Source: an uncultured Chthonomonadaceae bacterium
GTDB taxonomy: Bacteria > Armatimonadota > Chthonomonadetes > Chthonomonadales > Chthonomonadaceae
Length of the DNA: 64,000 nt
Assembly: GCA_963835065.1 (NCBI GenBank)
Contig: CAWIEK010000063.1
Location: 96,001 to 160,000, forward strand
Direction of reading: 5' to 3'
How positions within the stretch are numbered: the first letter of the stretch is position 1; the number at the start of each line of letters is the position of its first letter. The notes below the pieces were generated by a model that did not search any database, was not told the origin of the DNA, and saw nothing but the letters and a program-made list of their open reading frames with translations. A program made the translations under genes and the position numbers. Shown in pieces: positions 15,281 to 40,660 of the stretch.

Positions 15281-15417
15281 GGCAGGTGGCGCAAGGTAGA
15301 TTAGCGGCGGCGGGTAAGCGGGTTCAGGCGTCCCAAGCCTGTGCGCAGCTTGCCCCACAGCGGCGTGGTCACGATGTCGTCGAAGACCGAGGTAGATGAC
15401 GGGCGTGGTGAGCAGGG
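15281..15417 (-). pseudogene. Duplicated 3' end (~39 codons plus 3' flank) of the RND gene
   Basis: Aligns with 18083-18214; tail NPLTRRR* versus NPRARRP*; one 1-bp insertion. Confidence 0.88.
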
Positions 15418-15437: not shown

Positions 15438-17337
15438 TCAGGGCGATGTTAGCGCCGCAATATACAGGCGGACGCGCGGAGAGTTGTGTAAACTCAGACT
15501 TTCGACGCCCACATTGGAGCGTAAGCCAAGCAGAACTGCGTTCTTACTGTCCGCCGCCTTGCTTAAATCCGGCGCAGAAAGCAATGCAAGAGCCTGCCGC
15601 TGTTGAGCGTCGGTAAGCGCGGCAAATGGCAGGTGCCCCTCGACAATTTGACGGCGGGCTTCCTCGCGCAAACTGGAGTAAAAGCGCGTGGTGGAATACT
15701 CATGAAAAATACGATTCACATCCTGGTCGAAGGGGAAAGGCCAGATGTAATTGGTGAGCGTACTTTGGTCGTTGACAACTTCCGTTCGCGCCTTTGGCAA
15801 GCTTTTGGGCGTGTAAGGGGTATACCAGGACAATCCATTTGCGAGTTGCCAAAGCGTGAGCGTATCCGTAACCTCCGCCTCCCAATCCATTTGCGCTTTC
15901 ACTTGTTCCGGCGTCCAGGGCGTCTTCGCGTCTTTAGCCCCTCCCTTTTTCATGTTCTGCTTGACGGACAGCCAACGACTGAGAAGAGAGGCCGGAACTT
16001 CCAGATTGTCGGCCTTATACCAGCGGTTATAACGGAACAAGTAGAGGTTGGCCTCTGTTTGCTTCCAACTGGTATCTTGCCTGCAGGGCGCGAAAATTCA
16101 ATTCCTCTTTCAGCGGGCGCGTCAGAGGCTGAGAAAAAGGATTGGGAGCGCTCGTAGCGGATAAAGACGCGGGATAACCAGGCAGCGAGTAGTAGTCGGC
16201 AATAAACTCCATGTTGCTCTTGTCTGCAAGCCATTGAAACACTTCGGGGCGATAAGGTGGCGGGTTGCTGCGAGACGTCTGCGTGGGGAGGTCATTGGGC
16301 CAGACACGGGTGCTTTGATAGTTCGCCAACTCACGCCAGGCGCGTGGCGCAGCGCGTCCCATCCGCTTTACCTGCTCCGGCAGTTGATTTTGACTGAGCA
16401 TCAGCACGGCCAATTGTGGCGTCATGCCTGTAGAAAACGCATACACATGCGTTGCCTGGTAATCGGGAAGCAAAATGCCAACGGTGACTCCGTGCCCCCG
16501 ATTGTTGAAGCGCACAATAACGTTTTGCCAGTCTACACTTCTGTGCGCCGCAAACATGGTCGCGCCCTCAGTGTGCCCCAACAGGTTTTGCGCGCCGGAA
16601 GGCAGATCGCGCAGGAACACCGTTGTCGCCTGTTCCTCAAAGTCGCCCTGCGTCGCCATGCCTCCTTGCCCATAGAAGGATAAATCAATCAACTGGTTCG
16701 CGATTTGTTCCTGCATGTCGGCTGGCAGCAGGTTGAAAAACTCTTGTTGATTGGCTAACATCGCTTCGATTTGCAGATCACTGTGTTCCGGGTTGGGATC
16801 GTTAGGCTGCCTGCGGAAAGGCTTGGCGCGTAAATGCTGAAGAACCTGTTCGCGCAGCCCCGCTAACGCTTGTTCACGCTGGCTTAGAAATAAATCCCAC
16901 CACCGCTGGCGACGCTGCGCGGCGGCAGGAGCCATGTAGAGTTTGTACCCGGTGTTGTCACTCAGAGCATGCCATTCACCCGGCATCCATTCCGCCAGCG
17001 ACTGCATCAAGGCGCGTAGGGAACGCTGTTTCAGCCGCAGTTGCAGTTTCTGGTTTGCGCAGGAAGGGTCTGCTTTAAGCGTCAGGCCATTCGCGCTAAC
17101 CTTTTGCAGAAGTTCCTCCAAATTGATGCCTACCTCATCCAAACTGATTTTACGTTCCAGGCGCGTGTCATTCGGAATTGGTGGAGATTGCGTTACAGGC
17201 GATTGAGAGGGAAGCGTGGAAGGTGGTTTCTGCGCCAATCCTGCTGTACAAGCAAACAGTAAAAGTAAAGGCGCAAACCTGAAGCTCACTAAGTGTTGTC
17301 TTCTCAAAGTGACCTCCTCGCAAACATAGTTGCCCAT
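15438..17337 (-). CDS. Secreted hypothetical protein (STN-like N-terminus), split by a frameshift near 16040-16070
   Basis: Signal peptide; DTRLERKISL..LEELLQ..LQLRLKQRSLRALMQSLA; overlapping ORFs 16027-17337 and 15438-16040. Confidence 0.6.
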
Positions 17338-17418
17338 ACCGAAGAGTGTTCATTCAATCGGCATGGGCAAGGAATAACAAAAGGCAGTCAGCTGTTCCAG
17401 TGGCAAACTGCCATAACG

Positions 17419-17847
17419 TTATTGAGTGATAGTGACATTGATGTGGTTCGTTGAGGCTGACCAAACGCCGAATCCATTCTCCAATCCGCCGTCAATACAA
17501 TAACACTCGTATACGCCGGATGAGTTGAATGATTCAGAAAAGCTATGGCTGCCGCCATGAAAAGCGGTAAAGTTGTCGAAGTTCGGATCCGTTTCCGAAA
17601 ACAAGTCACCCGTGCTAAGGTTGTTCCAGTGCGCCACGATGGATTTCCAATCGGAGTCACTGGAACTCAGCTGCACACTGTTAATCCATTGCATGATGAC
17701 AGTGTTCCCTCCCCCATAGAATGAGAAAGAACTGGTATTGCCGGCAATAGATAAAGAGCAGGTAGCCGCGCGGACAGGGCAAGCAAGCGTCAGCAAAGTG
17801 CCGATGCTCAGGAAAGCGAACAAACTGGCGTACCTCATTCGTTTCAT
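17419..17847 (-). CDS. Secreted Ser/Thr-rich beta-strand protein
   Basis: GAGG RBS, signal peptide; TTGACA-type promoter near 17945. Confidence 0.6.
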   Translation of the reverse strand: MKRMRYASLFAFLSIGTLLTLACPVRAATCSLSIAGNTSSFSFYGGGNTVIMQWINSVQLSSSDSDWKSIVAHWNNLSTGDLFSETDPNFDNFTAFHGGSHSFSESFNSSGVYECYCIDGGLENGFGVWSASTNHINVTITQ

Positions 17848-18098: not shown

Positions 18099-21000
18099 TT
18101 AGGGGCGGCGGGCGCGTGGGTTCAGGCGTCCCAAGCCTGTGCGCAGCTTGCCCCACAAGGGCGTGGTCACGATGTCGTCGAAGACCGAGTAGATGACGGG
18201 CGTGGCGAGCAGGGTCAGCAGCAGGGAAAGCGTCTGCCCGCCGATGACCGTGTACCCGATGCCCCGGTTCGTCGCCGCGCCCGTGCCGCTGGAAAACACG
18301 AGCGGAATCATGCCCGCCACAAACGCAATCGTCGTCATCAGAATCGGACGCAGGCGGTCCCGGTTGGCCTGAATGATGGCGTCGTAGCGGTTCATGCCCC
18401 GCGCCCGCAGTTGGTTGGTGTGGTCTACCTGCAAAATACCGTTCTTTTTCACCACGCCGAACAGCACCATCAGCCCCAAAACCGTGAAGATGTTGAGCGA
18501 CTGGTGGAAAATCACGAGCGCGAGTATGGCGAACGGAACCGTCAGCGGCAGGGCGAGCAGAATGGTGATCGGGTGTATCCACGATTCAAACTGCGCGGCC
18601 AAAATCAGGTACATGAAGATGATCGCCAGCAGGAACGTGGTGACGAACGCGACTGCCGCCTTGACCAGCTCTTTCGATGTGCCGGACGGCCCCGATGTGT
18701 ACTGCGGCGGCATGTGCTGCTTGTCAATGATTTTTTGCAGCGCGGCGGATACGTCCGACTGTGACGCGGTGGGCAGCACGTTGCTGGTAATCAGCACGTT
18801 GCGCCGCCGGTCCTGCCGCGTGATCTGCGACGGCCCGGTTCCCGTTGTAAAGTCCGCCACCTGATCCAGCGTCACCGTGCCGCCCGGATTGGTCGTGGAC
18901 GGAACCGTCATCTGGCTGATAACACTTGGATCGTTGCGGTATGGCAGGTCGGCGCGGACGTGTACCTCGTACTGTTCGCCGTTTTCAAAGTAGTCCGTCA
19001 CTTTGTCGCCGCCCACCAGCAGGTGTCCCGTGTTGGCGATGTCGGCAACCGACACGCCCAGGTCGGCGGCGCGCTGGCGATCCGGCACGATGCCCAATTC
19101 CGGCTGCCCGACAATCAGCGACGTATCCGCATCCACCACGCCGGGAACCTTCTTGAACTCGGCCAGAACGTTCTGCGAATACTTTGTCAGTTCTTTCAAA
19201 TCCGGCCCGCCGATGAAGTAGGTAATGACCGCCTGGGGCGCTCCCGTCGAGAACGCGGGAACCGGTCCTGCGGATGTGCGCAGGTTGCCATACTTGGGCA
19301 GCACCTGGGTACGCGCCATCTGGGTCAAATCCTGCTGCGTCAGATCAGGGCGCTTGCTGACATCCACCAGCTTGACGAATATTGCGGCAAGGTTGGGCGT
19401 CTGCTGCGCGTTGTTGCCAATGGTGACAACGGTATACGCCACGCCTTTCAGCTTGCGAATGTCATCGGCAATGCGGCTGGCAATGGCGGTTGTGGCGCGG
19501 AGGGTCGTGCCTTCCGGCGCGCGAACGCTCACCTGGAACTGCAACTCGTCATCGTCCGGCAAAAAGTTCTTGGAAACCATCGGCACGGTAAACTTCATGC
19601 TGAACAGTGCCAGCAGGCAGGCCAGAATGACAATCCAGCGATGCCGCATGGAAAAATGCAGCATCCAGGTATACACGGCGTCAATCGGCTTGAAAATGCC
19701 TTTGTGCTTGCTGCCCTCGTTGGTGGTTGGTGACTTGTGGCTGGTGGCTGGTTGTCCTGTTCCCTGTTCCCTGTTCCCTGTTCCCTGAGTGACCCCTTCC
19801 TCACTGGGTACGCCGACGGGCAGGCCGTCCGAAGAGGGTTCTGCGGCGGCGGGTTTGGAGCGCTTGATCCAGCGGGAGGCGAGCATGGGCGTCATGGTGA
19901 AGGACACGATCAGCGAGACGAAAATGGCGAAGGCCATTGTCCAGCCGAACGAGTTCATAAACCGCCCGACGATGCCCGACATGAACGCGACGGGCAGGAA
20001 CACGGCGATCAGCGACAGGGTGGTGGCAAGCACGGCCAGCCCGATTTCGCGCGTCCCTTCAATCGCCGCCTCGAACGGCGTCATGCCCTTTTCTTCGATG
20101 AACCGATAGATGTTTTCCAGGACGACAATGGCGTCGTCAATCACGATGCCGACGGAAAGCGTGAGCGCGAGCAGGGTGAGGCTGTTGAGCGTAAAGTCTT
20201 TGGCGTACATCAGCGCGAACGTGCTGATGATACTGGCGGGAATGGCGATGGCGGAAATAATGGTCGTGCGCCAGTTCCACAGGAAGATGAGAACCACGAG
20301 CGCGGCCAAAATGCTGCCGAGTTTCAGGTGTTCCTTTACCGCGTCCGTGCTTGCCTTGATGTATTCGGACTGGTCGCGGGTAATGATGATTTTGTAACCC
20401 GGCGGCAATCCTTTCTCGATTTGTTTGAGGCGATCTTTCAGGCCGTCAACGGTCGCAACCGTGTTCAAGCCGGACTGCTTGCGGATGGACAAAATAACTG
20501 TCGGAACGCCGTTGTACAGCGCGGTGGTGTTTTCGTCTTCCACGCTGTCTTCCACATGCCCGACATCGGACACGCGAATAAACGCGCCGCCCTTTTTAGC
20601 AATTACAATGTCGTTGAAATTTTGCGCGACTTCTACCCGCCCGTGTGTGCGCAGGGTCAGTTCGCGGGTGTTCTGATCCACTTTGCCGCCCGGAACCTGA
20701 ATGTTCTGCGATTGCAGCGCGCGCTCCACGTCAATGGCGGTCAGGTTCACGGCGCGCAGTTTGCCGGGGTCAAGAATGATGTTAATCTGGCGCTTGCGTC
20801 CGCCGAGCAGCGTGACCTGTCCCACCCCGCTGACGTTTTCCAGTTGGCGGCGCAGGGTTTTGTCGGCGTACTCCGTCGTATCGCGCACATTGCCGGGCGA
20901 GGAAAGCGCCACTTCCAGGATCGGCGCGGCGTCCGGGTCTACCTTGTCCACAATCGGCGCTTTCAAGTCCTGCGGCAGATCGGCAAGGACGCCACTCACC

Positions 21001-21335
21001 TTGTCGCGCACTTCCTGCGTGGCGATGTCAACGTCCTTTTCCAGTTGGAAGGTGATGAAGATGACGCCGACGCCCTCATACGCGGTGGAGTTGAGCGTAT
21101 CAATGCCGCTGATGGTGTTGACGGCCTCTTCCACCTTGTCTATGACTTCGGTTTCGATCTCTTCGGGCGACGCGCCATCCTCGCGCAGCGTGATGGTAAC
21201 GGTCGGGAAGTCTACTTTGGGAAAACGGTCAACGCCCAGTTTGGTGTAGCCGAAGTAACCGACAACCGTAAGCGCGAGAATGATAACGGTCGCAAACACG
21301 GGACGGCGCACACAAATTTCTGCCAGCCACTGCAT
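18099..21335 (-). CDS. AcrB/AcrD/AcrF-family RND efflux transporter
   Basis: RRPVFA, GIVIDDAIVVLEN, GVVKKNGIL, RLRPILMTT; repeat insert GTGNREQGTG in the central loop. Confidence 0.95.
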   Translation of the reverse strand: MQWLAEICVRRPVFATVIILALTVVGYFGYTKLGVDRFPKVDFPTVTITLREDGASPEEIETEVIDKVEEAVNTISGIDTLNSTAYEGVGVIFITFQLEKDVDIATQEVRDKVSGVLADLPQDLKAPIVDKVDPDAAPILEVALSSPGNVRDTTEYADKTLRRQLENVSGVGQVTLLGGRKRQINIILDPGKLRAVNLTAIDVERALQSQNIQVPGGKVDQNTRELTLRTHGRVEVAQNFNDIVIAKKGGAFIRVSDVGHVEDSVEDENTTALYNGVPTVILSIRKQSGLNTVATVDGLKDRLKQIEKGLPPGYKIIITRDQSEYIKASTDAVKEHLKLGSILAALVVLIFLWNWRTTIISAIAIPASIISTFALMYAKDFTLNSLTLLALTLSVGIVIDDAIVVLENIYRFIEEKGMTPFEAAIEGTREIGLAVLATTLSLIAVFLPVAFMSGIVGRFMNSFGWTMAFAIFVSLIVSFTMTPMLASRWIKRSKPAAAEPSSDGLPVGVPSEEGVTQGTGNREQGTGQPATSHKSPTTNEGSKHKGIFKPIDAVYTWMLHFSMRHRWIVILACLLALFSMKFTVPMVSKNFLPDDDELQFQVSVRAPEGTTLRATTAIASRIADDIRKLKGVAYTVVTIGNNAQQTPNLAAIFVKLVDVSKRPDLTQQDLTQMARTQVLPKYGNLRTSAGPVPAFSTGAPQAVITYFIGGPDLKELTKYSQNVLAEFKKVPGVVDADTSLIVGQPELGIVPDRQRAADLGVSVADIANTGHLLVGGDKVTDYFENGEQYEVHVRADLPYRNDPSVISQMTVPSTTNPGGTVTLDQVADFTTGTGPSQITRQDRRRNVLITSNVLPTASQSDVSAALQKIIDKQHMPPQYTSGPSGTSKELVKAAVAFVTTFLLAIIFMYLILAAQFESWIHPITILLALPLTVPFAILALVIFHQSLNIFTVLGLMVLFGVVKKNGILQVDHTNQLRARGMNRYDAIIQANRDRLRPILMTTIAFVAGMIPLVFSSGTGAATNRGIGYTVIGGQTLSLLLTLLATPVIYSVFDDIVTTPLWGKLRTGLGRLNPRARRP

Positions 21336-30836: not shown

Positions 30837-30863
30837 TGCTGACTTCTTTACATCCAAAACCAA

Positions 30864-30920
30864 AGGCTTTGTTGATCTGGAAGGCGTATTCCGGGGCAGG
30901 GTCGTGTTGTTCAGAACCAG
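30864..30920 (-). pseudogene. Small internal remnant of a HEPN paralogue
   Basis: Translates LVLNNTTLPRNT/FQINKA, compare LVLNNTSLHRSKRYQLNKA in the 32749 fragment. Confidence 0.55.
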
Positions 30921-31136
30921 CTATTGTGTAAGCATGCATTTGCTTGCAGTCGTTTCATGCCTCATTATTTAACATCATGAACTCATCACCTACCGTTCTG
31001 CCTCGTCAACAAGCGAAGCAGGACGGCTTTTCACGTTTTGTCGGTTCGATGTTTTCCTTTGACTCCCGCAGACTTTGACTCCCGCAGAATAAGAAGCGTT
31101 TTTCACAGCTCGTACTTTGCGGAAGCAGGCAATGGA

Positions 31137-31376
31137 TCAAGCGGCGTATTAATCCAGCATTGGCTCTGTCGGCGCAAGCAGGATGTTCAAATGCTTGTCT
31201 TCCTGAATGGCAGTCTCTATTTCGGCCAACGTATCGTACAATTCAAACGTTTTTTTCCGGCCAGGCGCTCGGACGAACGGGAACCTGCCACCAGTGATCT
31301 ATCTTGATAACTTCCGCTTCAACCACTTCCAGCGTCAGTCCGCTCGGATGCTGATCGCGCAGATACTCCCATACCG
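31137..31376 (-). pseudogene. Decayed third paralogue of the HEPN-partner gene
   Basis: VWEYLRDQHPSGLTLEVV..WWQVPVRPSAWPEK[fs]TFELYDTLAEIE..HLNILL; no start, frameshift in an A-run, premature stop. Confidence 0.8.
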
Positions 31377-31396
31377 TTGGGAACGCGCGTTCAGTA

Positions 31397-31675
31397 TCAC
31401 GCCGCCTGCGCTGTTAAATCCGTTTTCGCCGGGCTTGTCACGAGATAGACCTTCAAATTTTCCTCATCCGCCAGCGCAATCATTGCGTCTGCCAGCGCTT
31501 CATAATACTCAAAAAGGCGCTCAGGCTCGAAATCCGGCTGCACGGTGACGTTCCATGCAAACTCATCATGCCATATCTGGTCTTCCAGCACTGCCAGCGT
31601 TGCGCCGCCGGGACGAGCATCTTTTAGATAATGCCGCACCCGTTCCGCGATGAAATGCTTATCGTGTTCCGCCAT
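31397..31675 (-). CDS. Small acidic HEPN-partner protein (antitoxin-like)
   Basis: Overlaps the HEPN gene end; paralogous to 32475-32759. Confidence 0.7.
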   Translation of the reverse strand: MAEHDKHFIAERVRHYLKDARPGGATLAVLEDQIWHDEFAWNVTVQPDFEPERLFEYYEALADAMIALADEENLKVYLVTSPAKTDLTAQAA

Positions 31676-32048
31676 GTCTCTCCTCCAGAATTCTGATCAC
31701 GCTTTGCGCAAGTACCACCGATTCTAATGCCAGCCGCCTGTCTATGGATACCTGCGGGCGGTAGTCTGCGTTCTCTCTTGATGGCCGCAGGATAAGAAGC
31801 GCTTTTCGCAACTCGTGCTTTGCTTTGCGCGGAAGGTTGATATTGTTCATGACGAGTTCGGGGAGTTGTTCGTGCGCGGGATTGTTCCAGCCATGCGCAA
31901 AACTCACACCTTTTGCCACCAACTCCGCCGTAACCGCTGAATACGCCGCATAATACGAACTGCTGATGCTGCGCCGAAACAACCCTTCCTCCAACAGTTT
32001 TTTCGCAGCCTTCAAGCAATCCTCACTCATGTCCTGCCACGTTGCCAC
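31659..32048 (-). CDS. HEPN-domain protein
   Basis: LKAAKKLL......SISSSYYAAY.A..A.L, H, RENADY. Confidence 0.82.
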   Translation of the reverse strand: MATWQDMSEDCLKAAKKLLEEGLFRRSISSSYYAAYSAVTAELVAKGVSFAHGWNNPAHEQLPELVMNNINLPRKAKHELRKALLILRPSRENADYRPQVSIDRRLALESVVLAQSVIRILEERHGGTR

Positions 32049-32132
32049 CGCATTTCCCTCAGTTGATGTTTAAAAAAGGCGCGTGAAACTGTTCACGCGC
32101 CTCTTTATTATACGCCCGGTTTGCAGGAATGT

Positions 32133-32330
32133 CTACCTGTCGCGTTCGGTTCCGCTGTTGAGGGCGGCTTGGGCGGCCAGTCGGGCAATGGGGACGCGGA
32201 AGGGCGAGCAACTGACGTAGTTGAGGCCGATCTTGTGGCAGAACTTCACGCTTTCCGGTTCGCCTCTATGCTCGCCGCAGATGCCTAACTTGATGTCGGG
32301 ACGCACCTGCTTGGCCGACGCAACCGCCAT
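32133..32330 (-). pseudogene. ppdK: ppdK 3'-end copy 2 (~198 bp, decayed)
   Basis: [25 protein letters not shown]...[17 protein letters not shown] to R change and one-codon deletion versus ppdK. Confidence 0.92.
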
Positions 32331-32474
32331 AACAGGCTGCTTTCTCAATCGGGCATTCCTACGGTTCGTCCGTCACACGGTTGGCAAAAGGCCGTAGAAT
32401 CCTTTTGGCGCGCATCAAAACTGTGGAACACAAACAAACGCGAATGGTTCGCGCCTGTTTTTGAGTCTGCTTTG

Positions 32475-32759
32475 CTATGCCGCCTGCTTTTCCGGCGCTT
32501 CAATTTCTTCCTGCGGGGCCATGAGCGACAGCAGAATGTTCAAATGCTGCTGATCTTGCAGTTCAATTTCTACATCGGCGAGCGTATCGTACAGTTCGAA
32601 CGTCCGGGCGGGCCAGACATTGGGGCGCACGGGAACTTGCCACAACGTTTCCATTTTACGAACGCCCGCGTCCAGAACTTCAATGGTCGCGCCGCTCGGC
32701 TGACGCCCTTCAAAGCGTTCGCGCACCATTTGCGCTACGGCTTCCGCGTTAATCTCCAT
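32475..32759 (-). CDS. Small acidic HEPN-partner protein
   Basis: Paralogue of 31397-31675 (P.GAT..VL, W.V.V.P, YDTLAD). Confidence 0.72.
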   Translation of the reverse strand: MEINAEAVAQMVRERFEGRQPSGATIEVLDAGVRKMETLWQVPVRPNVWPARTFELYDTLADVEIELQDQQHLNILLSLMAPQEEIEAPEKQAA

Positions 32760-32965
32760 TGTCTTTTATCTCCAGAATGTCGAATACAAGCCGAACGTCA
32801 TGGATTCTGTTGAGCGCTGTACGCCGGTCTACCAGAACCGCCGGACGATAATCCGCATTTTCGCGTTCGATACGGAGGCGGCGGAGCGCTTTGTTCAGTT
32901 GATAACGCTTGCTGCGATGCAGGCTGGTATTGTTGAGTACCAAATCCGGCACTTGCTCATGTTTG
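32749..32965 (-). pseudogene. 5'-truncated HEPN gene (C-terminal half)
   Basis: HEQVPDLVLNN..LNKALRRLRIERENADYRPAVLVDRR aligns to the second half of 31659-32048; N-terminal half absent. Confidence 0.8.
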
Positions 32966-33007
32966 CCGAAATGTCTATAAACTGGAAGAGACGATCTTAT
33001 TGTTGTG

Positions 33008-33301
33008 CTATACCAGACAAAAATCCTTAAGAACCTTCGGAATGCCTTCCGTATCCCAAGCCGTTTCCACACAGACTCGCATTTCCACGTCAGGTAATGC
33101 CTCCAGGCGCAGACGTTGGAGCAGAGTTTCATCTATCACCTGCACGACCAATGGACAGCGTTTCTGAGTTCCATTGCGCAGGGTAAGCGTCATGACACAT
33201 CCGAGCCGTGCAGGAGTCCCTTCCACAATTCCTGTTGCTGTAACGCGATGCCAGGCCGTTTTGCGTCCCACCCGGTTCGCCGTAATTGTCTCACTGCTCA
33301 T
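33008..33301 (-). CDS. Hypothetical beta-rich protein, paralogue of 34357-34722
   Basis: W.R.T.TG...G.P, V.V.DE.LL.RL, E.R.C.ET.W, LKDFC shared; ATGA coupling. Confidence 0.75.
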   Translation of the reverse strand: MSSETITANRVGRKTAWHRVTATGIVEGTPARLGCVMTLTLRNGTQKRCPLVVQVIDETLLQRLRLEALPDVEMRVCVETAWDTEGIPKVLKDFCLV

Positions 33302-33855
33302 TGTTTGTTTCCTCTCCGAACTCTGACGTGATCTCTCGTTTCCAGTTGCAGCAGTCTCTCGTCTGGCGGTGGGCTGCCCGGAACCGGCAGCCCTGTTCCT
33401 CCTGTATCTATCTCTACGCCAGTCGCCAGGTGGAAAATAGCAATCTGATCACTCTCCAGCGCAAAATCTCGCGCTACACTCTCCTCATAAACCAGAACAG
33501 ATAGATCGAGAAAAAAGCTTTCTACCCCCTCATCGTTGATACCTTTCCATATTCCAATGCAGCAACGCGGGTGCTGCAGCAGGCTATAGTGCTTTTCAAT
33601 GAAGGCTTGCAGTTCCTCGGCAACGCTTTCTGCATCTGGATAGGCCGTTAGATCGTTGTCTAATCCAACCGCAAAGAACGGCTGGCTTATTTGATCACCG
33701 AAGTACAGGCTATAAGTTGCGCCCCCGCCGTTCTCAGGCTTCTCCAGAATTTCCAATATCTCATCAAGCGCCTTCGCGACTTCGCGCATATTCGGCAGGG
33801 AGGCAGAGACAGAAGAGAGGTATTCCAACAGGTTGTTCGCGCTCACCCCGGACAC
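33298..33855 (-). CDS. Hypothetical protein, paralogue of 34722-35255
   Basis: GG.TYSLYFGDQ..QPF.AVGLDN, HPRCC.GIW, QIA...L..G.EI..GGTG shared. Confidence 0.78.
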   Translation of the reverse strand: MSGVSANNLLEYLSSVSASLPNMREVAKALDEILEILEKPENGGGATYSLYFGDQISQPFFAVGLDNDLTAYPDAESVAEELQAFIEKHYSLLQHPRCCIGIWKGINDEGVESFFLDLSVLVYEESVARDFALESDQIAIFHLATGVEIDTGGTGLPVPGSPPPDERLLQLETRDHVRVRRGNKQ

Positions 33856-34027
33856 CGCCTTTTCATTCTACCTACAGGACAAATGTGTTTTGAATTAATT
33901 GGCGCATCGAACAACCAATTGTTGTAGATATTGTAGCATAGAATAGACAGACCGAACGAGGCACAAAGGGAAAATTGAATTTCCCCTCTGTGCCTTTGTG
34001 TCTCTAGCGTAGCGGGGGACTATGCGG

Positions 34028-34368
34028 CTATTTGTCCCGATGCGCGGTATCGCCAAGCGCGGCTTGGGCGGCGGCCAGTCGGGCAATGGGAACGCGGAAA
34101 GGAGAGCAGGACACGTAGTTGAGGCCGATCTTGTGGCAGAACTTCACGCTTTCCGGTTCGCCGCCATGCTCGCCGCAGATGCCCAACTTGATGTCGGGAC
34201 GCACCTGCTTGGCGCTTGCAACCGCCATCTGCATCAGCTTGCCCACGCCGGCTTGATCTACGGTGTCGAAGGGATCGGCAGCCAGGATTTTCTGCTCGAT
34301 GTAGGGCACGAGGAACTTGCCCGCATCATCACGGCTGAACCCAAACGTCATCTGCGTCAGGTCGTTGG
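34028..34368 (-). pseudogene. ppdK: ppdK 3'-end copy 1 (341 bp, alternative tail GDTAHRDK)
   Basis: Colinear with 37701-38041; the differences I found before the tail are synonymous. Confidence 0.95.
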
Positions 34369-34722
34369 CTGCTTGTAAAGCAACTCAGGCGTTTCTGACG
34401 GCTCTATGCAGCAGAAATCCTTGAGTGTCGCGGCAACATCCGCTGTGTTCCAATCGGTTTCTATACAGGCGCGTATTTCAACGCCTACAGAAAGTTTCAT
34501 AAGCCGGAGCAACAGGTTTTCGTCCGTCACGCGCACTGCCTGCGAGAAGTGCCGGGTGACACCGCTTTGCGTTTGCCCAACCGCATGAAATGTCACGCAG
34601 GTAGGATTGCCCGGTGTGACGCCTGTAAGCGTCATGCGCTGCCAACGAGCGTTCGGCTTAGAGGACGTTACTGCCTGCTGTGTTTCTAAAATGGCGATGT
34701 CGTTGCTCATAATTCGCTCCAT
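34357..34722 (-). CDS. Hypothetical beta-rich protein whose stop codon lies within the ppdK copy
   Basis: Paralogue of 33008-33301; final codons PTT* come from ppdK sequence CCAACGACCTGA. Confidence 0.75.
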
Positions 34723-35255
34723 TATTCCGGCTTGTCCTGCGTATCCAGTCGACGCAACCGCTCCAAACTGGATTCGCCTGTACCGCCGATTGCAATCTCC
34801 CCTGAACCGCCTTGTCGAAGATCGTACAAGGCGATCTGGTTTCCCCCGAGTGCAAATTCGCGCGCCCTTGCTTCATTGTACACCAGAACGGCAACATCTA
34901 TCCAGGCGGTTTCTACGCCATCCACATCTTTTGTTCGCCAGATACCAACACAGCAACGCGGGTGTGTCAGCAAATCACGACGCGCTTGCAGAAACCCGGT
35001 CAATGCTTCCGTCAGGGCTTCCGGTTCTGCTGTCCATGTGAAATTGTTGTCCAGACCCACAGCGTAAAAAGGCTGGCCGAATTGATCGCCGAAGTAAAGG
35101 CTGTAGGTCACTCCTCCATCCCGCTCAGGTTTGTTCAGAATAACTTGCATGTCTGCAACTGCCTGTATCGCCGCTTTCAACGCAGGCAACGATGGGGCAA
35201 CTTCGCTGAACAAGTATTCAAACAACGTTCCCGCAACGTTACCAGACATCCACAT
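34722..35255 (-). CDS. Hypothetical protein, paralogue of 33298-33855
   Basis: Shared motif blocks; TAATG coupling at both ends. Confidence 0.78.
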   Translation of the reverse strand: MWMSGNVAGTLFEYLFSEVAPSLPALKAAIQAVADMQVILNKPERDGGVTYSLYFGDQFGQPFYAVGLDNNFTWTAEPEALTEALTGFLQARRDLLTHPRCCVGIWRTKDVDGVETAWIDVAVLVYNEARAREFALGGNQIALYDLRQGGSGEIAIGGTGESSLERLRRLDTQDKPE

Positions 35256-35662
35256 TACCTCGTGACTCGTTGATGCGCCAGATCGAGAAGATGTTCCGAC
35301 TTGTCAATAAGCGCATCCGCCTGCTGGTCGCGCTGTGCCCTTATCTGCTCTTGAGCCATGCGCCCATTGAGCGCGCTCATTTCAATGCGAAGCGCGTCCA
35401 TACGCTTTTCTTCCGCGCGGCTGATCGTTCGCATCAAAGCCTTTTCTGTCAGCCGTTGATACTCCTGCCGCAGCGAAGCAAGGTTTTCCATTGCCTGAAA
35501 CTGTTGAACCATATCTTCGACTATTTGAGCAGGGGTGGTACTTCGCGCCTGCGCCATCTGTTCTAAAATGTGGTAAGTACGGGGCGTCAGTTCCAACCGC
35601 TCACCTGTTTGTGCCAACTCATTTTCTCCTGTTCCATTGGCGTTGCGCTTTCCTTCATCCAT
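35255..35662 (-). CDS. Helical protein with RHH-like N-terminus
   Basis: RLELTPRTYHILEQMAQARSTTPAQIVEDMV, then coiled coil. Confidence 0.6.
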   Translation of the reverse strand: MDEGKRNANGTGENELAQTGERLELTPRTYHILEQMAQARSTTPAQIVEDMVQQFQAMENLASLRQEYQRLTEKALMRTISRAEEKRMDALRIEMSALNGRMAQEQIRAQRDQQADALIDKSEHLLDLAHQRVTR

Positions 35663-35722
35663 GTCAAAAAGAGGACGCGAACATTCTCGCCCTTCTCCAT
35701 TATACGCCCGTTTCGCTAAATC

Positions 35723-35944
35723 CTATGGTAACGGTTCAGAATCACAGAAAGCATCGAAAGCCTTTCCTGTTTCGATGTAAGCCGTAAATTCAATACTTTC
35801 CTGCTCGGACCAATCCATAGCCGCCAATATGCCGAAGAACTCCGTGACATCTACTTTGTCGTACCCCTCGCTCAATATAGCATCTGCCATCGTCTGAAAA
35901 TTAGTCGGTATCAACTCCTCATTCAACATCAGCCCCTTTTTCAT
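35723..35944 (-). CDS. Small acidic hypothetical protein
   Basis: 73-aa ORF with purine-rich upstream sequence. Confidence 0.5.
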   Translation of the reverse strand: MKKGLMLNEELIPTNFQTMADAILSEGYDKVDVTEFFGILAAMDWSEQESIEFTAYIETGKAFDAFCDSEPLP

Positions 35945-36863
35945 AAGCCTACCTACCCTTACTGTAATTCGCTGCTACAACCACAGTCCAAATTTCGCAA
36001 CAAAAAGGTTCCTACTAAACTGCCTTATCCCCCCTGCGCCTTTGTACCTGACGTGAAAGAGTTGTAGATCAGCGGATTCGCAAAAGGCGAGACATGTCAA
36101 CTCTATTTTTGCATAACGGCACATTCAAACCATTTTGTTATCCATGCTTATTTATTGTAGACTGTCACAAGAGGCTCATCCTGACCATTGAACGATTTTG
36201 AACTGTTTTTTTCGACGTTTTCTGTCCATTGAAACTATGCAATCTGTTGGCATCCAAGATTTAGAAATATGGATTTCATGTCTCACTATATTTCTCGACG
36301 GTCAGCCGAACGGCAACGGACGTCTACTGCTATGCGCCTGTACGTTGTTACGTTTCGATTCAACGCTTGGTTTCAAGCGTTACGACAAAAGGAGAAGCAA
36401 TTGGTTACTAATCCCTGCACCCCTGCTTACTAGCTCAACCGCCTTCTCATCCTTTCCGCGCATGCGGCACAGCGTTGTAAAGAGCGCGGCCTGCCCCATC
36501 TGAATTATCTGCCAGCCAATGCTCGGCTCGTGGACACGGATGTGGACGTGCATGGACGACTGGAAGCGCTGACGTTCAAAGTTTTGGACGATGAGTGCCC
36601 CTTCTTCGTTGTGGTTTCGGTGAACGCAGTTGTCATCACGGTGTTCATAAACGAGGAACAGATGTTCGCCAAATCGCAGCGTCGCAAGCAGTACCGTAGA
36701 CGCTGCCGACAGATGGGCTAAAGCAACACAAAACATATCGTGAGTACAAGATCAGGCTGCTAGTGCAGTGCCTGATTTTTAAACGCCTTCACACAAAGGC
36801 GCTTTGCACGGAGGGCAGCAAAGCGCCTTTATTGTGAGGCTCAGGTGAAAGGGCAATACGCAT

Positions 36864-37580
36864 ATGGAACAAAAATATGCTTTGTCAGCATACAAACCGA
36901 CGCACATCACCCCGCAACTTATTAAAACAGCCTATCACGAAGCCGGTCACGCGCTCGCCTGCGTGTGGCGTCGCTCACTGGTACAGCGCGTCACAGCAAT
37001 GCCACAGCCAGGCTCACGCGGGCATTGTCTGTATTCCATCAGCAACGCGACATCGCCGTTGGATCGCGTCAAGATGAGTCTGGCCGGAGCCATCGCCGCC
37101 CGCATTGCCACACAACCACAATGGTATCCTGTTCCGGGTTGGCGTCCCTCAGCGGAAGAGGGAGCAGGCGCAGATATGCAGGATGTATTCCAGTTTCTCC
37201 GAGAACACACAAGCGGTTCTTGTGTTTCGTGGAGTGACCGTAGCGCAGGGTTTTCAGAAAAGGAGGATGCCATACTTGATGGCCTCATTGCTGAAGTCTT
37301 CAAATGGCTGAGTGCCCCGGCGCGGCGGCAGGCGTTGGATGTGGTGGCGTCTCTGTTGATGGATCAAGGAACTCTGGTTATGCCATTGGTTAATCAGATC
37401 ATCCGCGACTCGATGACTTTTCCGTCACATCAAGGGTTCGTGTTTGCGCCTGATTTTAGCTATCGGCACTGGAAACGAATGGTTGAATTAGGTGGCGTGT
37501 ACGACCCGCGCCGCCGCGCCTGGTGGATTCCACCCTCACAAATCAACAGCCTTAACAATTTGAGGCGCAGGCAAGGATAG
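36864..37580 (+). CDS. Stand-alone M41/FtsH-like zinc peptidase domain with DUF5710-like tail
   Basis: TAYHEAGHAL, LAG.IA, GAD; C-terminal LGGVYDPRRRAWWIP. Confidence 0.7.
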   Translation: MEQKYALSAYKPTHITPQLIKTAYHEAGHALACVWRRSLVQRVTAMPQPGSRGHCLYSISNATSPLDRVKMSLAGAIAARIATQPQWYPVPGWRPSAEEGAGADMQDVFQFLREHTSGSCVSWSDRSAGFSEKEDAILDGLIAEVFKWLSAPARRQALDVVASLLMDQGTLVMPLVNQIIRDSMTFPSHQGFVFAPDFSYRHWKRMVELGGVYDPRRRAWWIPPSQINSLNNLRRRQG

Positions 37581-37651
37581 CACGTTTTGCAGAGATGCGC
37601 AAGAACCTGAACCTGTGCAATTTACTCATCCGCCCTCACGACACCTGCAAA

Positions 37652-37686
37652 CAACAACAGGCAGGGCTTATTTCTGCCTGTTGTTG
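37652..37686. terminator. Hairpin after the ppdK stop, between convergent genes
   Basis: CAACAACAGGCAG..CTGCCTGTTGTTG. Confidence 0.7.
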
Positions 37687-37700
37687 CATGAGTATAACAC

Positions 37701-40391
37701 CTACTTATCGCGTTCGGTTCCGCTGTTGAGGGCAGCCTGGGCAGCGGCCAGTCGGGCAATGGGAACGCGGAAGGGAGAGCAGGACACGTAGTTGAGGCCG
37801 ATCTTGTGGCAGAACTTCACGCTTTCCGGTTCGCCGCCATGCTCGCCGCAGATGCCCAACTTGATGTCGGGACGCACCTGCTTGGCGCTTGCCACCGCCA
37901 TCTGCATCAGTTTGCCCACGCCGGCTTGATCTACGGTGTCGAAGGGATCAGCGGCCAGGATTTTCTGCTCGATGTAGGGCACGAGGAACTTGCCCGCATC
38001 ATCACGGCTGAACCCAAACGTCATCTGCGTCAGGTCGTTGGTTCCGAACGAGAAGAAGGCCGCGTTGCCATTAGCCGGGTCTGCCAACTGATCGGCGACG
38101 AGGCAGGCGCGCGGGATTTCGATCATCGTGCCGAACATGTAGTCGAGTTCGACGCCCGCGTTGGCGATTACGTCGTTGGCGACCCGCTCCAGATTGCCAC
38201 GCACGGACTTGAGTTCGTTGACGTGGCCGACGAGCGGGATCATGATTTCGGGGTGAACGTCCTTGCCCCGCTTCTTCACGGCTGCCGCGCCCTGCAAAAT
38301 GGCGCGTACCTGCATTTCGACGATGCCGGGGAACACAATGGAAAGACGGCAGCCGCGCAGTCCCATCATTGGGTTTGCTTCGCGCATTCCCTCGACGGCT
38401 TGCAGCAGGGCTTCCTTCTTGTGCAGTTCCTCGCTGTCGCCCTTTGCCCGCAGTTCCGTCACCTGTACGAGCAGTTCGTCGTGGGAGGGCAGGAACTCGT
38501 GCAGGGGCGGGTCAATCAGGCGGATGGTGACGGGCTTGCCGTCCATGACCTCGAAGATGCCCTCGAAGTCCTTCTGTTGTATGGGCAGCAGCCGATCCAA
38601 GGCGTTTTTGCGGACGGCTTCATCCGTCGCCAGAATCATTTCCTGCACGATGGGCAGGCGATCCTGCTCGAAGAACATGTGTTCGGTGCGGCACAGGCCG
38701 ATGCCTTCCGCGCCCAGATCAAGCGCCTGCTGCGCGTCGCGGGGGTTGTCGGCATTGGTGCGGACGCCCATTTTACGGAAGCTGTCGGCCCATACCATCA
38801 GTTCGCTGAACGCGCCGGACACTTCGGGCGCGATCAGTTTCAGCGCGCCCACATAAACCGCGCCGCTGGAACCGTCCATCGTAATCGTGTCACCCTCGCG
38901 CACAACCACGTCGCCAACGGTCATGGTTTTAGCTTCGGCGCTCACTTTCAGGCTTTCCGCGCCCGCTACGCAGGGGATACCGAAGCCGCGCGCCACAACT
39001 GCGGCGTGACTGGTTTTGCCGCCCCGGGCGGTGAGGACGCCCTGCGCCGCGAGCATACCATGAACATCGTCGGGGTTGGTTTCGTCGCGGACGAGAATCA
39101 CTTTGCCGCCCGCGCCGCCGTGTACGCCCTGCAAAGCGGCGGTGTCGGCGTCAAAAACCGCTTTGCCGACGGCAGCGCCGGGAGAAGCCGCAAGCCCGGT
39201 CGCAATCTTTTTCGCGCTGTCGAGTACGGCGGGGTCAATGCGCGGGTGCAGCAGTTGGTCTACGTGCGAACCCGTGACGCGATTGACGGCCTCTTCTTTG
39301 GAAATCAAGCCCTCATGCACCATGTCAACCGCGATACGCACGGCAGCCGGCCCCGTGCGCTTGCCGGAACGACACTGGAGCATGAACAGTTTGTTGTGTT
39401 CAATGGTGAACTCAATGTCCTGCATGTCCTTGTAGTGGTCTTCCAGACGGTCGCAGGTTTCGATAAACTGCTTGTAAATTTGCGGGTTCTGCTGCTCCAA
39501 GTGGGAAATCGGAACCGGGGTGCGGACGCCGGCAACCACATCCTCGCCCTGCGCGTTCATCAGGTACTCGCCGAAAATGGCCTTTTCACCGGTAGAGGGG
39601 TCGCGGGTAAACGCAACGCCCGTGCCGCAATCGTCGCCCGCGTTGCCGTACACCATAGACTGGATGTTGACGGCTGTGCCGATGTCATCGGGGATTTTTT
39701 CGGTGCGGCGGTACACAATGGCGCGATCCGTATTCCAGGAACGGAACACGGCCTCAACCGCCAATTGCAGCTGCTCGTAAGGATCGGTGGGGAATTCGCG
39801 GCCCGCGTGTTCGCGGACATGGGCGAGGAACAGTTCCGAAACCTGCCGCAGGTCGTCGGCGTTGAGTTCGAGGTCGTCCGTGACGCCCTTCTTTTCTTTG
39901 TATTCCTTGAAGATGTGGTTGTCGAAATCGTGCTTGGACAGGCCGAACGCCACATCCGAAAGCATCATAATGAAGCGACGGTAGGCGTCGTAGACAAAGC
40001 GGGGGTTGTCGGTTTCTTTGATCAGGGCGTCAATTGTGGTGGGATTGAGGCCGAGATTAAGCACGGTGTCCATCATGCCGGGCATGGAAAACTTCGCGCC
40101 GGAGCGCACGGACACGAGCAGGGGTTTCGCGTCGCCGCCGAACTCGCGCTCCATTTGCTTTTCTACGGCGCGGATAGCCTCTTTGACGGCGGGCATCAGG
40201 TCGGCGGGAACCTGCTTGCCATTGGCGTAGTAGGCGTTGCAGGTGTCGGTGGTGATGGTGAAGCCGGGGGGTACGGGCAGGCCGATGTTGGTCATTTCGG
40301 CGAGGTTGGCGCCTTTGCCACCCAGCAGGTCGCGCATGGATTTGTCGCCCTCTGCAAACAGATAGACGCGCTTCGTTGCCACTGCGGTCAT
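37701..40391 (-). CDS. ppdK: Pyruvate, phosphate dikinase
   Basis: [66 protein letters not shown]. Confidence 0.98.
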   Translation of the reverse strand: MTAVATKRVYLFAEGDKSMRDLLGGKGANLAEMTNIGLPVPPGFTITTDTCNAYYANGKQVPADLMPAVKEAIRAVEKQMEREFGGDAKPLLVSVRSGAKFSMPGMMDTVLNLGLNPTTIDALIKETDNPRFVYDAYRRFIMMLSDVAFGLSKHDFDNHIFKEYKEKKGVTDDLELNADDLRQVSELFLAHVREHAGREFPTDPYEQLQLAVEAVFRSWNTDRAIVYRRTEKIPDDIGTAVNIQSMVYGNAGDDCGTGVAFTRDPSTGEKAIFGEYLMNAQGEDVVAGVRTPVPISHLEQQNPQIYKQFIETCDRLEDHYKDMQDIEFTIEHNKLFMLQCRSGKRTGPAAVRIAVDMVHEGLISKEEAVNRVTGSHVDQLLHPRIDPAVLDSAKKIATGLAASPGAAVGKAVFDADTAALQGVHGGAGGKVILVRDETNPDDVHGMLAAQGVLTARGGKTSHAAVVARGFGIPCVAGAESLKVSAEAKTMTVGDVVVREGDTITMDGSSGAVYVGALKLIAPEVSGAFSELMVWADSFRKMGVRTNADNPRDAQQALDLGAEGIGLCRTEHMFFEQDRLPIVQEMILATDEAVRKNALDRLLPIQQKDFEGIFEVMDGKPVTIRLIDPPLHEFLPSHDELLVQVTELRAKGDSEELHKKEALLQAVEGMREANPMMGLRGCRLSIVFPGIVEMQVRAILQGAAAVKKRGKDVHPEIMIPLVGHVNELKSVRGNLERVANDVIANAGVELDYMFGTMIEIPRACLVADQLADPANGNAAFFSFGTNDLTQMTFGFSRDDAGKFLVPYIEQKILAADPFDTVDQAGVGKLMQMAVASAKQVRPDIKLGICGEHGGEPESVKFCHKIGLNYVSCSPFRVPIARLAAAQAALNSGTERDK

Positions 40392-40489
40392 ATAGGTAAG
40401 GTCTCCTTCTTCGGGTTCAATACTTGGGATGCGTCTGTTATTGTACCAGAAAACGGCGGGAAGGGGTTACTGCGCGGCCAGGAAGGGAT

Positions 40490-40617
40490 TCACCACAGAG
40501 GCACAGAGGGGGCACAGAGGAAGACAAGGAGAAAAGGAGAAGAGGAGAAGAGGAGAGGGGAACCGCGAAAGACACCAAATAAACGAAAAAGACGAAAACA
40601 AAGTAGACAGGATGAAT
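40490..40617. repeat. Modular purine-rich repeat, related to one arm of the 52848-53133 palindrome
   Basis: ACCACAGAGGCACAGAG..CACAGAG, AACCGCGAAA.ACAC.AAATAAACGAAA, GACAGGAT. Confidence 0.65.
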
Positions 40618-40660
40618 GGAGGCTGTTGGGAAACAGGATATTGGTTCGCGCCAACCGGGT

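Follow-up and report, generated by a model that had tools for sequence, protein, structure and literature searches.

We have analysed the region downstream of ppdK, the gene for pyruvate phosphate dikinase, in a stretch of 64,000 nucleotides (hereafter the window) from an uncultured Chthonomonadaceae bacterium (contig CAWIEK010000063.1, positions 96,001 to 160,000, of assembly GCA_963835065.1). In transcription order the intact gene is followed by a block of cargo genes (cargo A), a 341-bp copy of the ppdK 3' end, cargo B, a 198-bp copy of the same 3' end and cargo C. The copies have the character of diverged alleles, no integrase domain is found in the open reading frames (ORFs) of the region, and the same architecture recurs at other genes of this genome and behind ppdK in other genomes. 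We think it fairly probable that units consisting of a gene tail and its cargo enter by homologous recombination in the conserved tail and thereby displace the older tails.

Displaced ppdK tails in the window

A first-pass annotation made from the nucleotide sequence had proposed an intact ppdK followed by a stack of cargo blocks and gene-end copies, and the same layout was recovered here by ORF analysis, alignment and BLAST. The features that define the stack are:

37701..40391, minus strand: intact ppdK (pyruvate phosphate dikinase), the anchor gene, 896 amino acids (aa) with the tail NSGTERDK; ORF and Pfam domains PPDK_N, PEP-utilizers and PEP-utilizers_C
37701..38041, minus strand: 3' segment of ppdK that recurs downstream; alignment and BLAST
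34028..34368, minus strand: displaced ppdK tail copy 1, 341 bp, frame still open, tail GDTAHRDK; Pfam PEP-utilizers_C
32133..32330, minus strand: displaced ppdK tail copy 2, 198 bp, tail NSGTERDR; ORF, alignment and BLAST
32077..32102, minus strand: terminator-like hairpin just 3' of copy 2, with 11 pairs and a T run on the minus strand; consensus scan only

Over 313 nt copy 1 and ppdK share 97% identity, and they diverge in the final ~28 nt (alignment and BLAST); a match of this length and identity cannot be attributed to chance. Copy 2 shows 90-91% identity to ppdK and carries both the loss of one codon (LAAAQ to LAAQ) and the G to R change that the annotation had pointed out in the distal copy. 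The intact gene and the two copies are the sole ppdK matches in the whole assembly of 8.0 Mb and 71 contigs (BLAST). According to its Pfam domains the anchor is a complete dikinase and not a secreted toxin whose C-terminal toxin domain varies, and the ppdK tails vary in the last ~8 residues only. A terminator-like hairpin is also present after the stop codon of the intact gene, every tail having its own, and the hairpin at 32077..32102 is probably the old ppdK terminator.

Tail copies as diverged alleles

Upstream of the tail, ppdK and copy 1 differ by 9 synonymous and 0 non-synonymous changes, in line with the earlier statement that copy 1 differs only synonymously until its tail. As the annotation had proposed, the copies were compared with their genes for the two kinds of change, here in 13 tail/copy comparisons across the genome, and pooling gave 93.5 synonymous differences (Sd) and 39.5 non-synonymous differences (Nd), that is, proportions of differing sites of 0.18 (pS) and 0.025 (pN) and a pN/pS ratio of 0.14. 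The ratio is at most 0.16 in 11 of the 13 comparisons, pS ranges from 0.06 to 0.27, and in most pairs ~1-3% of the non-synonymous sites differ. The tail copy of recA, for instance, is 97.5% identical to the gene in DNA and 100% identical in protein over aa 5-94. Duplication in place followed by drift of one copy would be expected to give a pN/pS of ~0.5 or above, since about half of the divergence would then be neutral. The differences are mostly synonymous, and therefore two alleles with histories as working genes appear to have been brought together. Judged from its substitutions copy 1 is a diverged functional allele and not a fresh duplicate, and the view of the copies as former functional alleles holds for ppdK as well as for the 11 comparisons with low ratios.

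ppdK stacks in related genomes and other phyla

For comparison we used genomes of the same genus as the host (G007 and G008), of another genus (G010) and of the same family (G023 and G009), together with genomes from three further families, namely f29 (G156, G139 and G329, all within genus g84), f11 (G180) and f6 (G143).

The order of events in the window is indicated by G007. This genome has a single ppdK with the tail NSGTERDR, which is the tail of copy 2, and its 3' end continues into the start of a HEPN gene (locus L028, 17935-18356, against window 31908-32330, 85%), so that the N-terminal part of o129, the HEPN gene of cargo C, is found directly after ppdK. Copy 2 and cargo C therefore represent the original gene end with its neighbourhood, and cargo B and cargo A were inserted later. 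Sequence comparison thus supports a unit that consists of a tail and the cargo downstream of it, with older units lying further downstream. The annotation had already read the stack as chronologically ordered, and both the link between the G007 tail and cargo C and the different ranks of units within g84 (below) agree with it.

Within the family a ppdK tail match was found in 37 of 42 genomes, nine of which have at least two matches, and same-strand copies 1-8 kb downstream of ppdK were verified in G008, G010, G023 (three copies) and G009. The cargo downstream of ppdK varies between relatives, as had been predicted. In G008 the ppdK repeat is 434 bp long with 98.6% identity, and the cargo consists of one gene without an assigned function and a PIN gene. 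This repeat (L027, 2499-2932 and 3837-4270) runs 66 bp beyond the stop codon, and the G008 event is either much younger or has been homogenised by gene conversion. The GDTAHRDK tail, which the annotation expected on an intact ppdK of some relative, was found on none of the ~20 full-length genes of family relatives among all tblastn matches (loci L005-L031).

G010 carries a ppdK fragment with 87% protein identity to the host ppdK, while the resident G010 gene has 65-76%, and an orthologue of the cargo C gene o92 (78%) adjoins this fragment. A second ppdK fragment is located 114 kb away and is followed by a HEPN gene and by the relatives of o94 (86%) and o92 (80%). A fragment of foreign type beside an o92 orthologue indicates that tail and cargo travel jointly across genera. 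Insertion sequence (IS) transposase ORFs of the IS3 type, with the same length and Pfam scores, are found beside both fragment sites (L024, 6136-6846, and L025, 13368-14078), and an IS-mediated rearrangement may have split one G010 stack in two.

When 401 genomes sampled from the phylum (host included) were compared, the ppdK tail had a match in 366, and at least two matches were obtained for 6 of 29 family relatives and for 21 of 336 others. All five multi-match genomes that were checked (G156, G139, G329, G180 and G143) have downstream same-strand copies, up to three each, and their cargo includes XisHI, VapBC, MazEF, a HEPN pair, GmrSD, an AAA_15/21 ATPase with DUF3226, a DNA methylase, HNH and AIPR. 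Stacks behind ppdK are thereby found in at least four families of the phylum. In genus g84, XisHI immediately follows ppdK in G156, whereas in G139 it comes after a displaced copy, and the HEPN unit is the first in G139 and the last in G329. One joint between cargo and tail copy is common to G156 and G139 at ~70% identity. The shared joint and the differing ranks therefore point to joints that are old and inherited, and to units that have been shuffled among tail copies.

Among Planctomycetota, at least two matches occur in 20 of the 242 genomes having a match. Five of these were checked: one (G620) has a clear downstream tail copy, two have copies at contig edges and the rest have distant paralogues. 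The idea that the stacks are exclusive to Armatimonadota was ruled out by G620. When named genomes were scanned with the ppdK tail, 80 loci were obtained, most of them in other phyla; not one had a further tail copy within a distance of 8 kb.

The same pattern at other genes of this genome

In a comparison of the genome with itself, direct repeats of 90-1500 bp were collected as local pairs if separated by less than 30 kb, and the pairs were sorted with independent codon-usage gene calls; the class of interest comprised pairs in which the repeat forms the 3' end of a gene (at least 600 nt long) and a short copy lies downstream. Out of 179 local pairs, 19 belong to this class and 3 to its mirror image (5' end with the copy upstream), the rest being 5 with the 5' end and a copy downstream, 1 with the 3' end and a copy upstream, and 151 others. 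We suggest that 3' ends prevail over 5' ends (19 against 3) because replacement of a 3' end retains the promoter and most of the gene. The 19 pairs correspond to 17 anchor genes, since ppdK is counted twice and lactate permease is present on two contigs that are 98.65% identical. Four loci from a first, cruder classifier (L033, L035, L040 and L044) were tandem paralogues and were set aside. The view of a metabolic gene, ppdK, as a special anchor was therefore too narrow, as at least 17 genes of the genome show the pattern. The second anchor in the window and its surroundings are:

18099..21335, minus strand: AcrB-family RND (resistance-nodulation-division) transporter, 1078 aa; Pfam ACR_tran, 7.7e-270
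15438..17847, minus strand: its cargo, three ORFs of 142, 436 and 200 aa without a family match, missing from the orthologous site of G007
15298..15417, minus strand: displaced AcrB tail copy, 120 bp, 92%; self-comparison

Further anchors, each given with its cargo according to Pfam, are:

AcrB on contig C5: ParDE, then the tail copy
Lactate permease: an ORF without an assigned function and Exo_endo_phos, then the tail copy
WD40-caspase protein: DUF4276, AAA_21 and HNH, then the tail copy
ABC ATPase: a 114-aa ORF and PIN, then the tail copy
AP_endonuc_2 protein: AAA_21 and others, then the tail copy
TPR protein: DUF5655 and glyoxalase, then the tail copy
Subtilase: ORFs of 91 and 120 aa, then the tail copy
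RecA: 6.5 kb including a sacsin-like protein and HNH, then the tail copy
GalT: a methylase fragment and others, then the tail copy
DnaA: 7.7 kb, then the tail copy, then an 83-aa ORF and PIN
DUF1501: ParDE, then the tail copy
DUF3500: HTH_37 and Gp49-like, then the tail copy
HpcH aldolase: an IS200 fragment and others, then the tail copy

Overall the cargo consists mostly of toxin-antitoxin and defence genes, and most cassettes hold only ParDE, VapBC, HigBA-like or unassigned pairs. Such a bias could arise because direct repeats of 90-98% identity invite deletion, so that only addictive or otherwise selected cassettes would persist.

Two of the sites are empty in G007: the end of its AcrB gene joins straight onto the flank seen after the window copy at 15298..15417, and the ABC ATPase has an empty site there as well, while G008 has a different cassette at the ABC ATPase with its own 153-bp tail copy. 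In the order, 63 genomes have a recA match, and the copy in this genome is the only recA tail copy among them. With the queries used, the recA and dnaA cargo was not found in G007 or G008, and the downstream flanks of these genes are rich in IS elements and repeats and allow no clean empty site to be defined.

Two side observations belong to these loci. A ~150-bp repeat downstream of the ABC-ATPase cassette (C31:18886-19032, in L038) is found at ~40 places in G007, at several in G008 and also at the dnaA locus (L050), and looks like a miniature inverted-repeat transposable element (MITE). The two lactate-permease contigs (C8:384-17792 and C20:16370-32853) are 98.65% identical over ~16 kb, with an IS5 element inside the cassette on one of them, which points to strain heterogeneity or, alternatively, to a segmental duplication of recent date.

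Empty sites beside occupied sites with long direct repeats are also known from insertion with long target duplication, the nearest class in the published literature. Furuta et al. (2010, PMC2853133) describe restriction-modification genes that are inserted without a mobility gene between repeats of 46-423 bp, mostly in competent species and by a mechanism given as unknown. The loci described here share with these insertions the foreign genes without a mobility gene, the long direct repeats, which vary in length (92-415 bp here) and which in that source too overlap gene 3' ends in some cases, and the single-copy empty sites in G007 for the window AcrB and the ABC ATPase. If distant staggered breaks were filled in at the insertion site, the tail of the recipient itself would be duplicated, which would suit the ppdK copies of G008 (434 bp, 98.6%) as well as those of HpcH and subtilase in this genome (98.5%). 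We nevertheless regard this explanation of the stacks as very unlikely. Copies that are identical at birth are not expected to differ, as most pairs do, at 6-27% of synonymous against ~1-3% of non-synonymous sites, copy 1 has a different C-terminal tail, and the G010 fragment is of foreign type. The published repeats are near-identical (e.g. 417/423), in contrast to the diverged and mostly synonymous alleles found here, where in addition the cargo is mostly of the toxin-antitoxin and defence type, the stop codon consistently marks the end of the repeats, and successive insertions form stacks. Insertion with long target duplication has reportedly also been treated by Nobusato et al. in 2000.

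Integrases, nucleases and competence genes

The claim that the region is free of integrase and transposase genes stands: such a domain was found in 0 of 52 ORFs of the window region, comprising 11 cargo ORFs out of 14 proteins scanned and 41 further ORFs (at least 43 aa, both strands), and the Pfam domains Phage_integrase, Resolvase and Recombinase gave no hit in either set. The window stack region has no tRNA and no Rfam match. Related ppdK stacks, ten in all, are likewise integrase-free, with 0 of 124 ORFs in the stacks of G008, G010 and G023, where IS3-type transposases are the only mobility genes, and 0 of 126 ORFs in five stacks of the three other families. At the other loci of this genome an integrase was found in 0 of 146 ORFs (20 loci) and in 0 of 17 ORFs (three more loci).

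The genome as a whole holds 6 tyrosine recombinases (PF00589), none of them near the tail-copy loci. Direct-repeat pairs near three of the six measure 49 bp (100%), 61 bp (98%) and 52 bp (96%), and the sequences of these integrase-linked repeats form a clear contrast to the divergent tail copies of 92-415 bp in the same genome. In C49:430200-447550 an array of 16 tRNA genes is situated directly beside a tyrosine integrase (432742-433284), and to judge from a direct repeat of 61 bp (432227-432287 and 447490-447550) an element of ~15 kb may have integrated there.

These numbers bear on the explanation that the stacks are decayed or trans-mobilised integrative elements, resembling cis-mobilizable elements (CIMEs), which integrated in tandem at gene 3' ends with a replacement tail in their attP site and whose integrase was lost or acted in trans. 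It is established that integrators at 3' ends restore the gene with their own allele, and this would yield the same synonymous-only pattern; the stacks do look like tandem accretion, and the IS3 elements indicate plastic regions. We nonetheless consider this explanation improbable. Searches for an integrase were negative for 15 host stacks and cassettes as well as for 10 ppdK stacks from elsewhere, the boundaries of the 92-415-bp repeats have no common core, and the repeats near the three host integrase genes are of a different kind (49-61 bp, 96-100%). At least 17 targets would moreover require many integrases, and the genome has 6.

Another enzyme-driven explanation is nuclease-assisted homing, where an endonuclease encoded in the cargo cuts tail alleles that lack the cassette, repair copies the donor tail together with the cargo, synonymous changes immunise the new tail and the native tail is left behind. 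One HNH family (170-190 aa, 50-57% identity) is present in the recA and WD40-caspase cassettes and twice in the G023 ppdK stack, two more distant HNH genes (26-36% identity to that family and 49% to each other) are found in the G143 stack, and ~18 loci in the host genome match the HNH queries (e.g. C54:56 kb, C11:71 kb and C2:39 kb). The mainly synonymous differences between tails and copies also fit homing, as does the larger distance of the ABC and AcrB tails than of the gene bodies from G007 (numbers below). The ppdK stack in the window, however, lacks an endonuclease gene in cargo A, B and C, HEPN being the sole nuclease-type domain that Pfam detects in its ORFs, and the cassettes with only toxin-antitoxin or unassigned pairs are in the majority. 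As a general explanation homing is in our view unlikely.

Joints and crossover signal

Tail repeats of this genome span 92-415 bp with 1.5-22% divergence. Their homology ends at the stop codon of the anchor or within ~10 nt beyond it, while the 5' boundaries are sharp, vary in position and have no common motif; for ppdK they fall at residues 675, 761, 764, 774, 785, 786, 809 and 831 in the different genomes. On the other side the last cargo gene stops 0-35 nt ahead of the displaced copy.

The tails diverge from G007 more than the gene bodies do (87% against 92% identity for ABC, 83% against 91% for AcrB and 88% against 90% for ppdK). A crossover inside the repeat predicts that the working gene is G007-like in the 5' part of the repeat and the displaced copy G007-like further 3', and informative sites at two anchors show such a switch. 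For AcrB the single informative 5' site (1/1) groups the anchor with G007, and among the 7 scorable sites further 3' the copy agrees with G007 at 6 (one site matches neither). For the ABC ATPase the anchor agrees with G007 at all of the 6 sites on the 5' side, and next comes a block in which the copy is the more G007-like sequence. The numbers of sites are small at both anchors.

A recombination model and the points against it

The observations would be accounted for as follows. The window region would be a stack of three units, each consisting of a ppdK 3' end and the downstream genes of its donor. Donor DNA of the form ppdK tail, terminator and cargo, derived from related bacteria, would recombine with the resident ppdK in the conserved 3' coding region, whereby the incoming tail becomes the new end of the working gene and the old tail is shifted downstream together with everything behind it. 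At least two such events would have occurred in the window, with cargo C as the original neighbourhood, cargo B arriving next and cargo A last, the latter jointly with the present tail of ppdK at 37701..38041. A recombinase encoded by the element would be unnecessary, as the conserved tail could provide homology for the RecA pathway of the host. Two routes can be envisaged. A circular molecule of tail and cargo, which could be released by recombination between two tail copies, may integrate by a single crossover; or a cassette situated between two tail copies may be exchanged by a double crossover with both copies as arms, so that the homology of one gene would suffice. The direct repeats would also permit cassettes to be shuffled or lost.

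Several points weigh against this model. The informative sites of ppdK itself are mixed and show no clean crossover pattern, and sliding-window identity to G007 along three anchor genes shows no crisp step at the boundary of the copy. Two of the 13 tail/copy comparisons have high pN/pS ratios (0.72 and 0.51). How the end of a cargo was first joined to an internal point of a gene is unexplained, the short distance between the last cargo gene and the copy is not obviously predicted by a random process, and recombination of an 87% tail with a resident gene of 65-76% protein identity, as in G010, would be inefficient. A circle, a donor molecule or a transfer route was seen in none of the data analysed. 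ComEC is present, but DprA and Ku were not found in the 92%-complete genome, and the gene content thus supports neither transformation nor end-joining. The assembly has 71 contigs and 8.0 Mb at 92% completeness with 3.7% contamination, and no independent read bridges the junctions in the window; this was examined over 30000-41000 with contigs of 151-220 nt from a soil metagenome run that contained 8% of the sampled words and five contigs identical to the window. An apparent joint 32210 -> 34158 in that run, with a depth of 2, a side of 34 nt and 85% likeness, was too weak to count.

The last points could be taken to mean that the stack is an artefact, in which strains were joined into a chimera at their common ppdK 3' end. 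The assembly is of the metagenome type and contaminated to the extent given above, the likeness of C8 and C20 shows strain heterogeneity or duplication, and the junctions lack a bridging read. Such a chimera is nevertheless extremely improbable. The joints link cargo ends to internal points of ppdK, which is not a product of strain mixing, the copies are distinct sequences (97% and 90%), and the same architecture is seen in genomes of 1-5 contigs (G008, G010, G023, G180, G329, G156 and G139).

More tentatively we propose as a possibility that conserved tails generally provide homology arms that are carried along with the cargo, much like an "integron without an integrase". Any cassette with copies of a conserved 3' end on both sides could then be inserted, stacked, shuffled and passed between diverged genomes by host recombination, at no fewer than 17 genes of this genome and at ppdK in at least four families of the phylum, with toxin-antitoxin and defence genes preferentially kept. 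A bolder sub-case would be that a dedicated nuclease, e.g. the recurrent small HNH family, actively drives the process.

Relation to known systems

The orphan modules of polymorphic toxin loci (CdiA and Rhs) offer an accepted model for a comparable layout, where a new 3' end and its partner gene are gained by recombination in a conserved part and older modules are pushed downstream. Common to those loci and to ours is the layout behind the main gene, with displaced 3' fragments and, after each of them, the gene or genes that belong to it. The anchors found here are in contrast ordinary or housekeeping genes (ppdK, recA, dnaA, galT, acrB and others) with conserved tails, and the payload consists of separate cargo genes.

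Minimal mobile elements of Neisseria are likewise cassettes without mobility genes, exchanged there by homologous recombination in conserved flanking genes, as is proposed here. They depend on a conserved flank on either side, and no gene end is duplicated, whereas at the present loci a single gene tail could provide the homology and stays behind as a copy. Relatives carry variable cargo at the same anchor and mobility genes are absent, and the loci may belong with minimal mobile elements if the cassettes are exchanged in this way.

Tandem accretion at 3' ends, with formation of CIMEs, is known for the integrative and conjugative elements (ICEs) ICESt1/3 at fda, where short att repeats arise from a tyrosine integrase. 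The likeness lies in the 3' ends of conserved genes as targets and in direct repeats that bound successive blocks without an integrase. The present loci differ by having no integrase, no near-identical short att core and long divergent repeats. Integrons differ as well, since here there is no integrase and no Rfam match and the cassettes are bounded by copies of gene tails. In fungal mitochondria, free-standing endonuclease ORFs (e.g. at Allomyces atp6) bring a replacement 3' end while the native end persists downstream. A foreign 3' end with a native 3' remnant downstream is common to both cases, but here only a minority of the cassettes encodes an endonuclease, and the three ppdK units of the window encode none.

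The literature that we searched holds no description of stacks of allele-like gene tails, which is not proof that none exists. How defence and toxin-antitoxin islets arrive in "hotspots" without mobility genes is an open question, and the present genome offers a readable record of such arrivals in the form of age-ordered leftover tails, preserved as diverged alleles at many genes. The record supports a route of gene gain that needs homology to a single conserved gene end only, which makes it relevant to the study of gene gain without the machinery of mobile elements. It may also account for tails of core genes such as recA and ppdK that are possibly more diverged than the remainder of the gene. 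The signature can be sought in any genome as a short in-frame copy of a 3' end downstream of the gene, with a low pN/pS relative to it.

Cargo genes of the window stack

The genes of the three cargo blocks are, in transcription order:

36864..37580, plus strand: cargo A, HEXXH protein, 238 aa, with a weak M41-like match; low coding score, opposite strand to ppdK
35723..35944, minus strand: cargo A, 73-aa ORF without a family match; ORF call
35255..35662, minus strand: cargo A, o135, 135-aa ORF without a curated family, the first of three overlapping (coupled) genes
34722..35255, minus strand: cargo A, o177, member of a conserved two-gene module (o177 family and o121 family)
34357..34722, minus strand: cargo A, o121, partner of o177, with the joint at its 3' end
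33298..33855, minus strand: cargo B, o185, paralogue of o177 (47%); protein comparison
33008..33301, minus strand: cargo B, o97, paralogue of o121 (36%); protein comparison
32749..33132, minus strand: cargo B, o127, HEPN-like and probably decaying; 36% to o129 and 49% to the G010 HEPN gene
32475..32759, minus strand: cargo B, o94, small partner of the HEPN gene; 86% identical to the gene beside a ppdK fragment in G010
31659..32048, minus strand: cargo C, o129, HEPN-domain protein, putative toxin; Pfam HEPN, 2.5e-12
31397..31675, minus strand: cargo C, o92, small partner of the HEPN gene, putative antitoxin; 78-80% to genes beside the G010 ppdK fragments
31161..31398, minus strand: cargo C, frameshifted o94-like remnant; two tblastn segments in different frames

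The annotation had described the first cargo A gene as an M41 peptidase. The protein has a HEAGH motif and a weak match to PF01434, the score of which (22.1 bits) is below the Pfam cut-off of 29.9, and the ORF was not selected by the codon-usage gene finder. Cargo A also contains a 0.9-kb stretch of low G+C content without a convincing gene. At the joint with copy 1, the stop codon and the final three codons of o121 derive from the ppdK copy.

Paralogous pairs link the blocks, as the annotation had said of toxin-antitoxin-like pairs, with identities of 47% (o177/o185), 36% (o121/o97), 36% (o129/o127) and 37% (o92/o94). Only o129 among the cargo ORFs attains the Pfam HEPN model, and searches of the cargo against NCBIfam, PADLOC and the ESM Atlas returned no function other than HEPN; the nearest ESM Atlas cluster of o92 is mainly from Armatimonadota. 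The o129 gene overlaps o92 by 17 nt, and the pair of a HEPN gene and a small partner is conserved in G010 and G139, so that domain and gene arrangement mark o129/o92 as a putative HEPN toxin-antitoxin pair.

The distal cargo was said to be more decayed than the proximal one. This agrees with the frameshift in the o94-like remnant and with o127, which is below the Pfam HEPN threshold, has a low coding score, was not called by the gene finder and overlaps o97 by 125 nt, but the stretch without a convincing gene in cargo A does not fit such a gradient. In the o97/o127 overlap (33008-33132) the two ORFs use different frames, yet each aligns to full-length relatives, and one of the two was probably disrupted by an older joint.

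The two-gene modules o177/o121 and HEPN/o92 both have paralogues at other places in the genome. Paralogous o177/o121 pairs are found on contigs C54 and C48 of this genome, in G010 and on one metagenome contig, while contigs C16 and C53 match the o121 family alone. The metagenome scan with o177 and o185 gave 1 locus, which holds two divergent o177/o121-like pairs and no ppdK fragment. In base composition the cargo is set apart from its anchor, with a G+C content of 0.45-0.55 against 0.58-0.65 for ppdK and 0.57 genome-wide.

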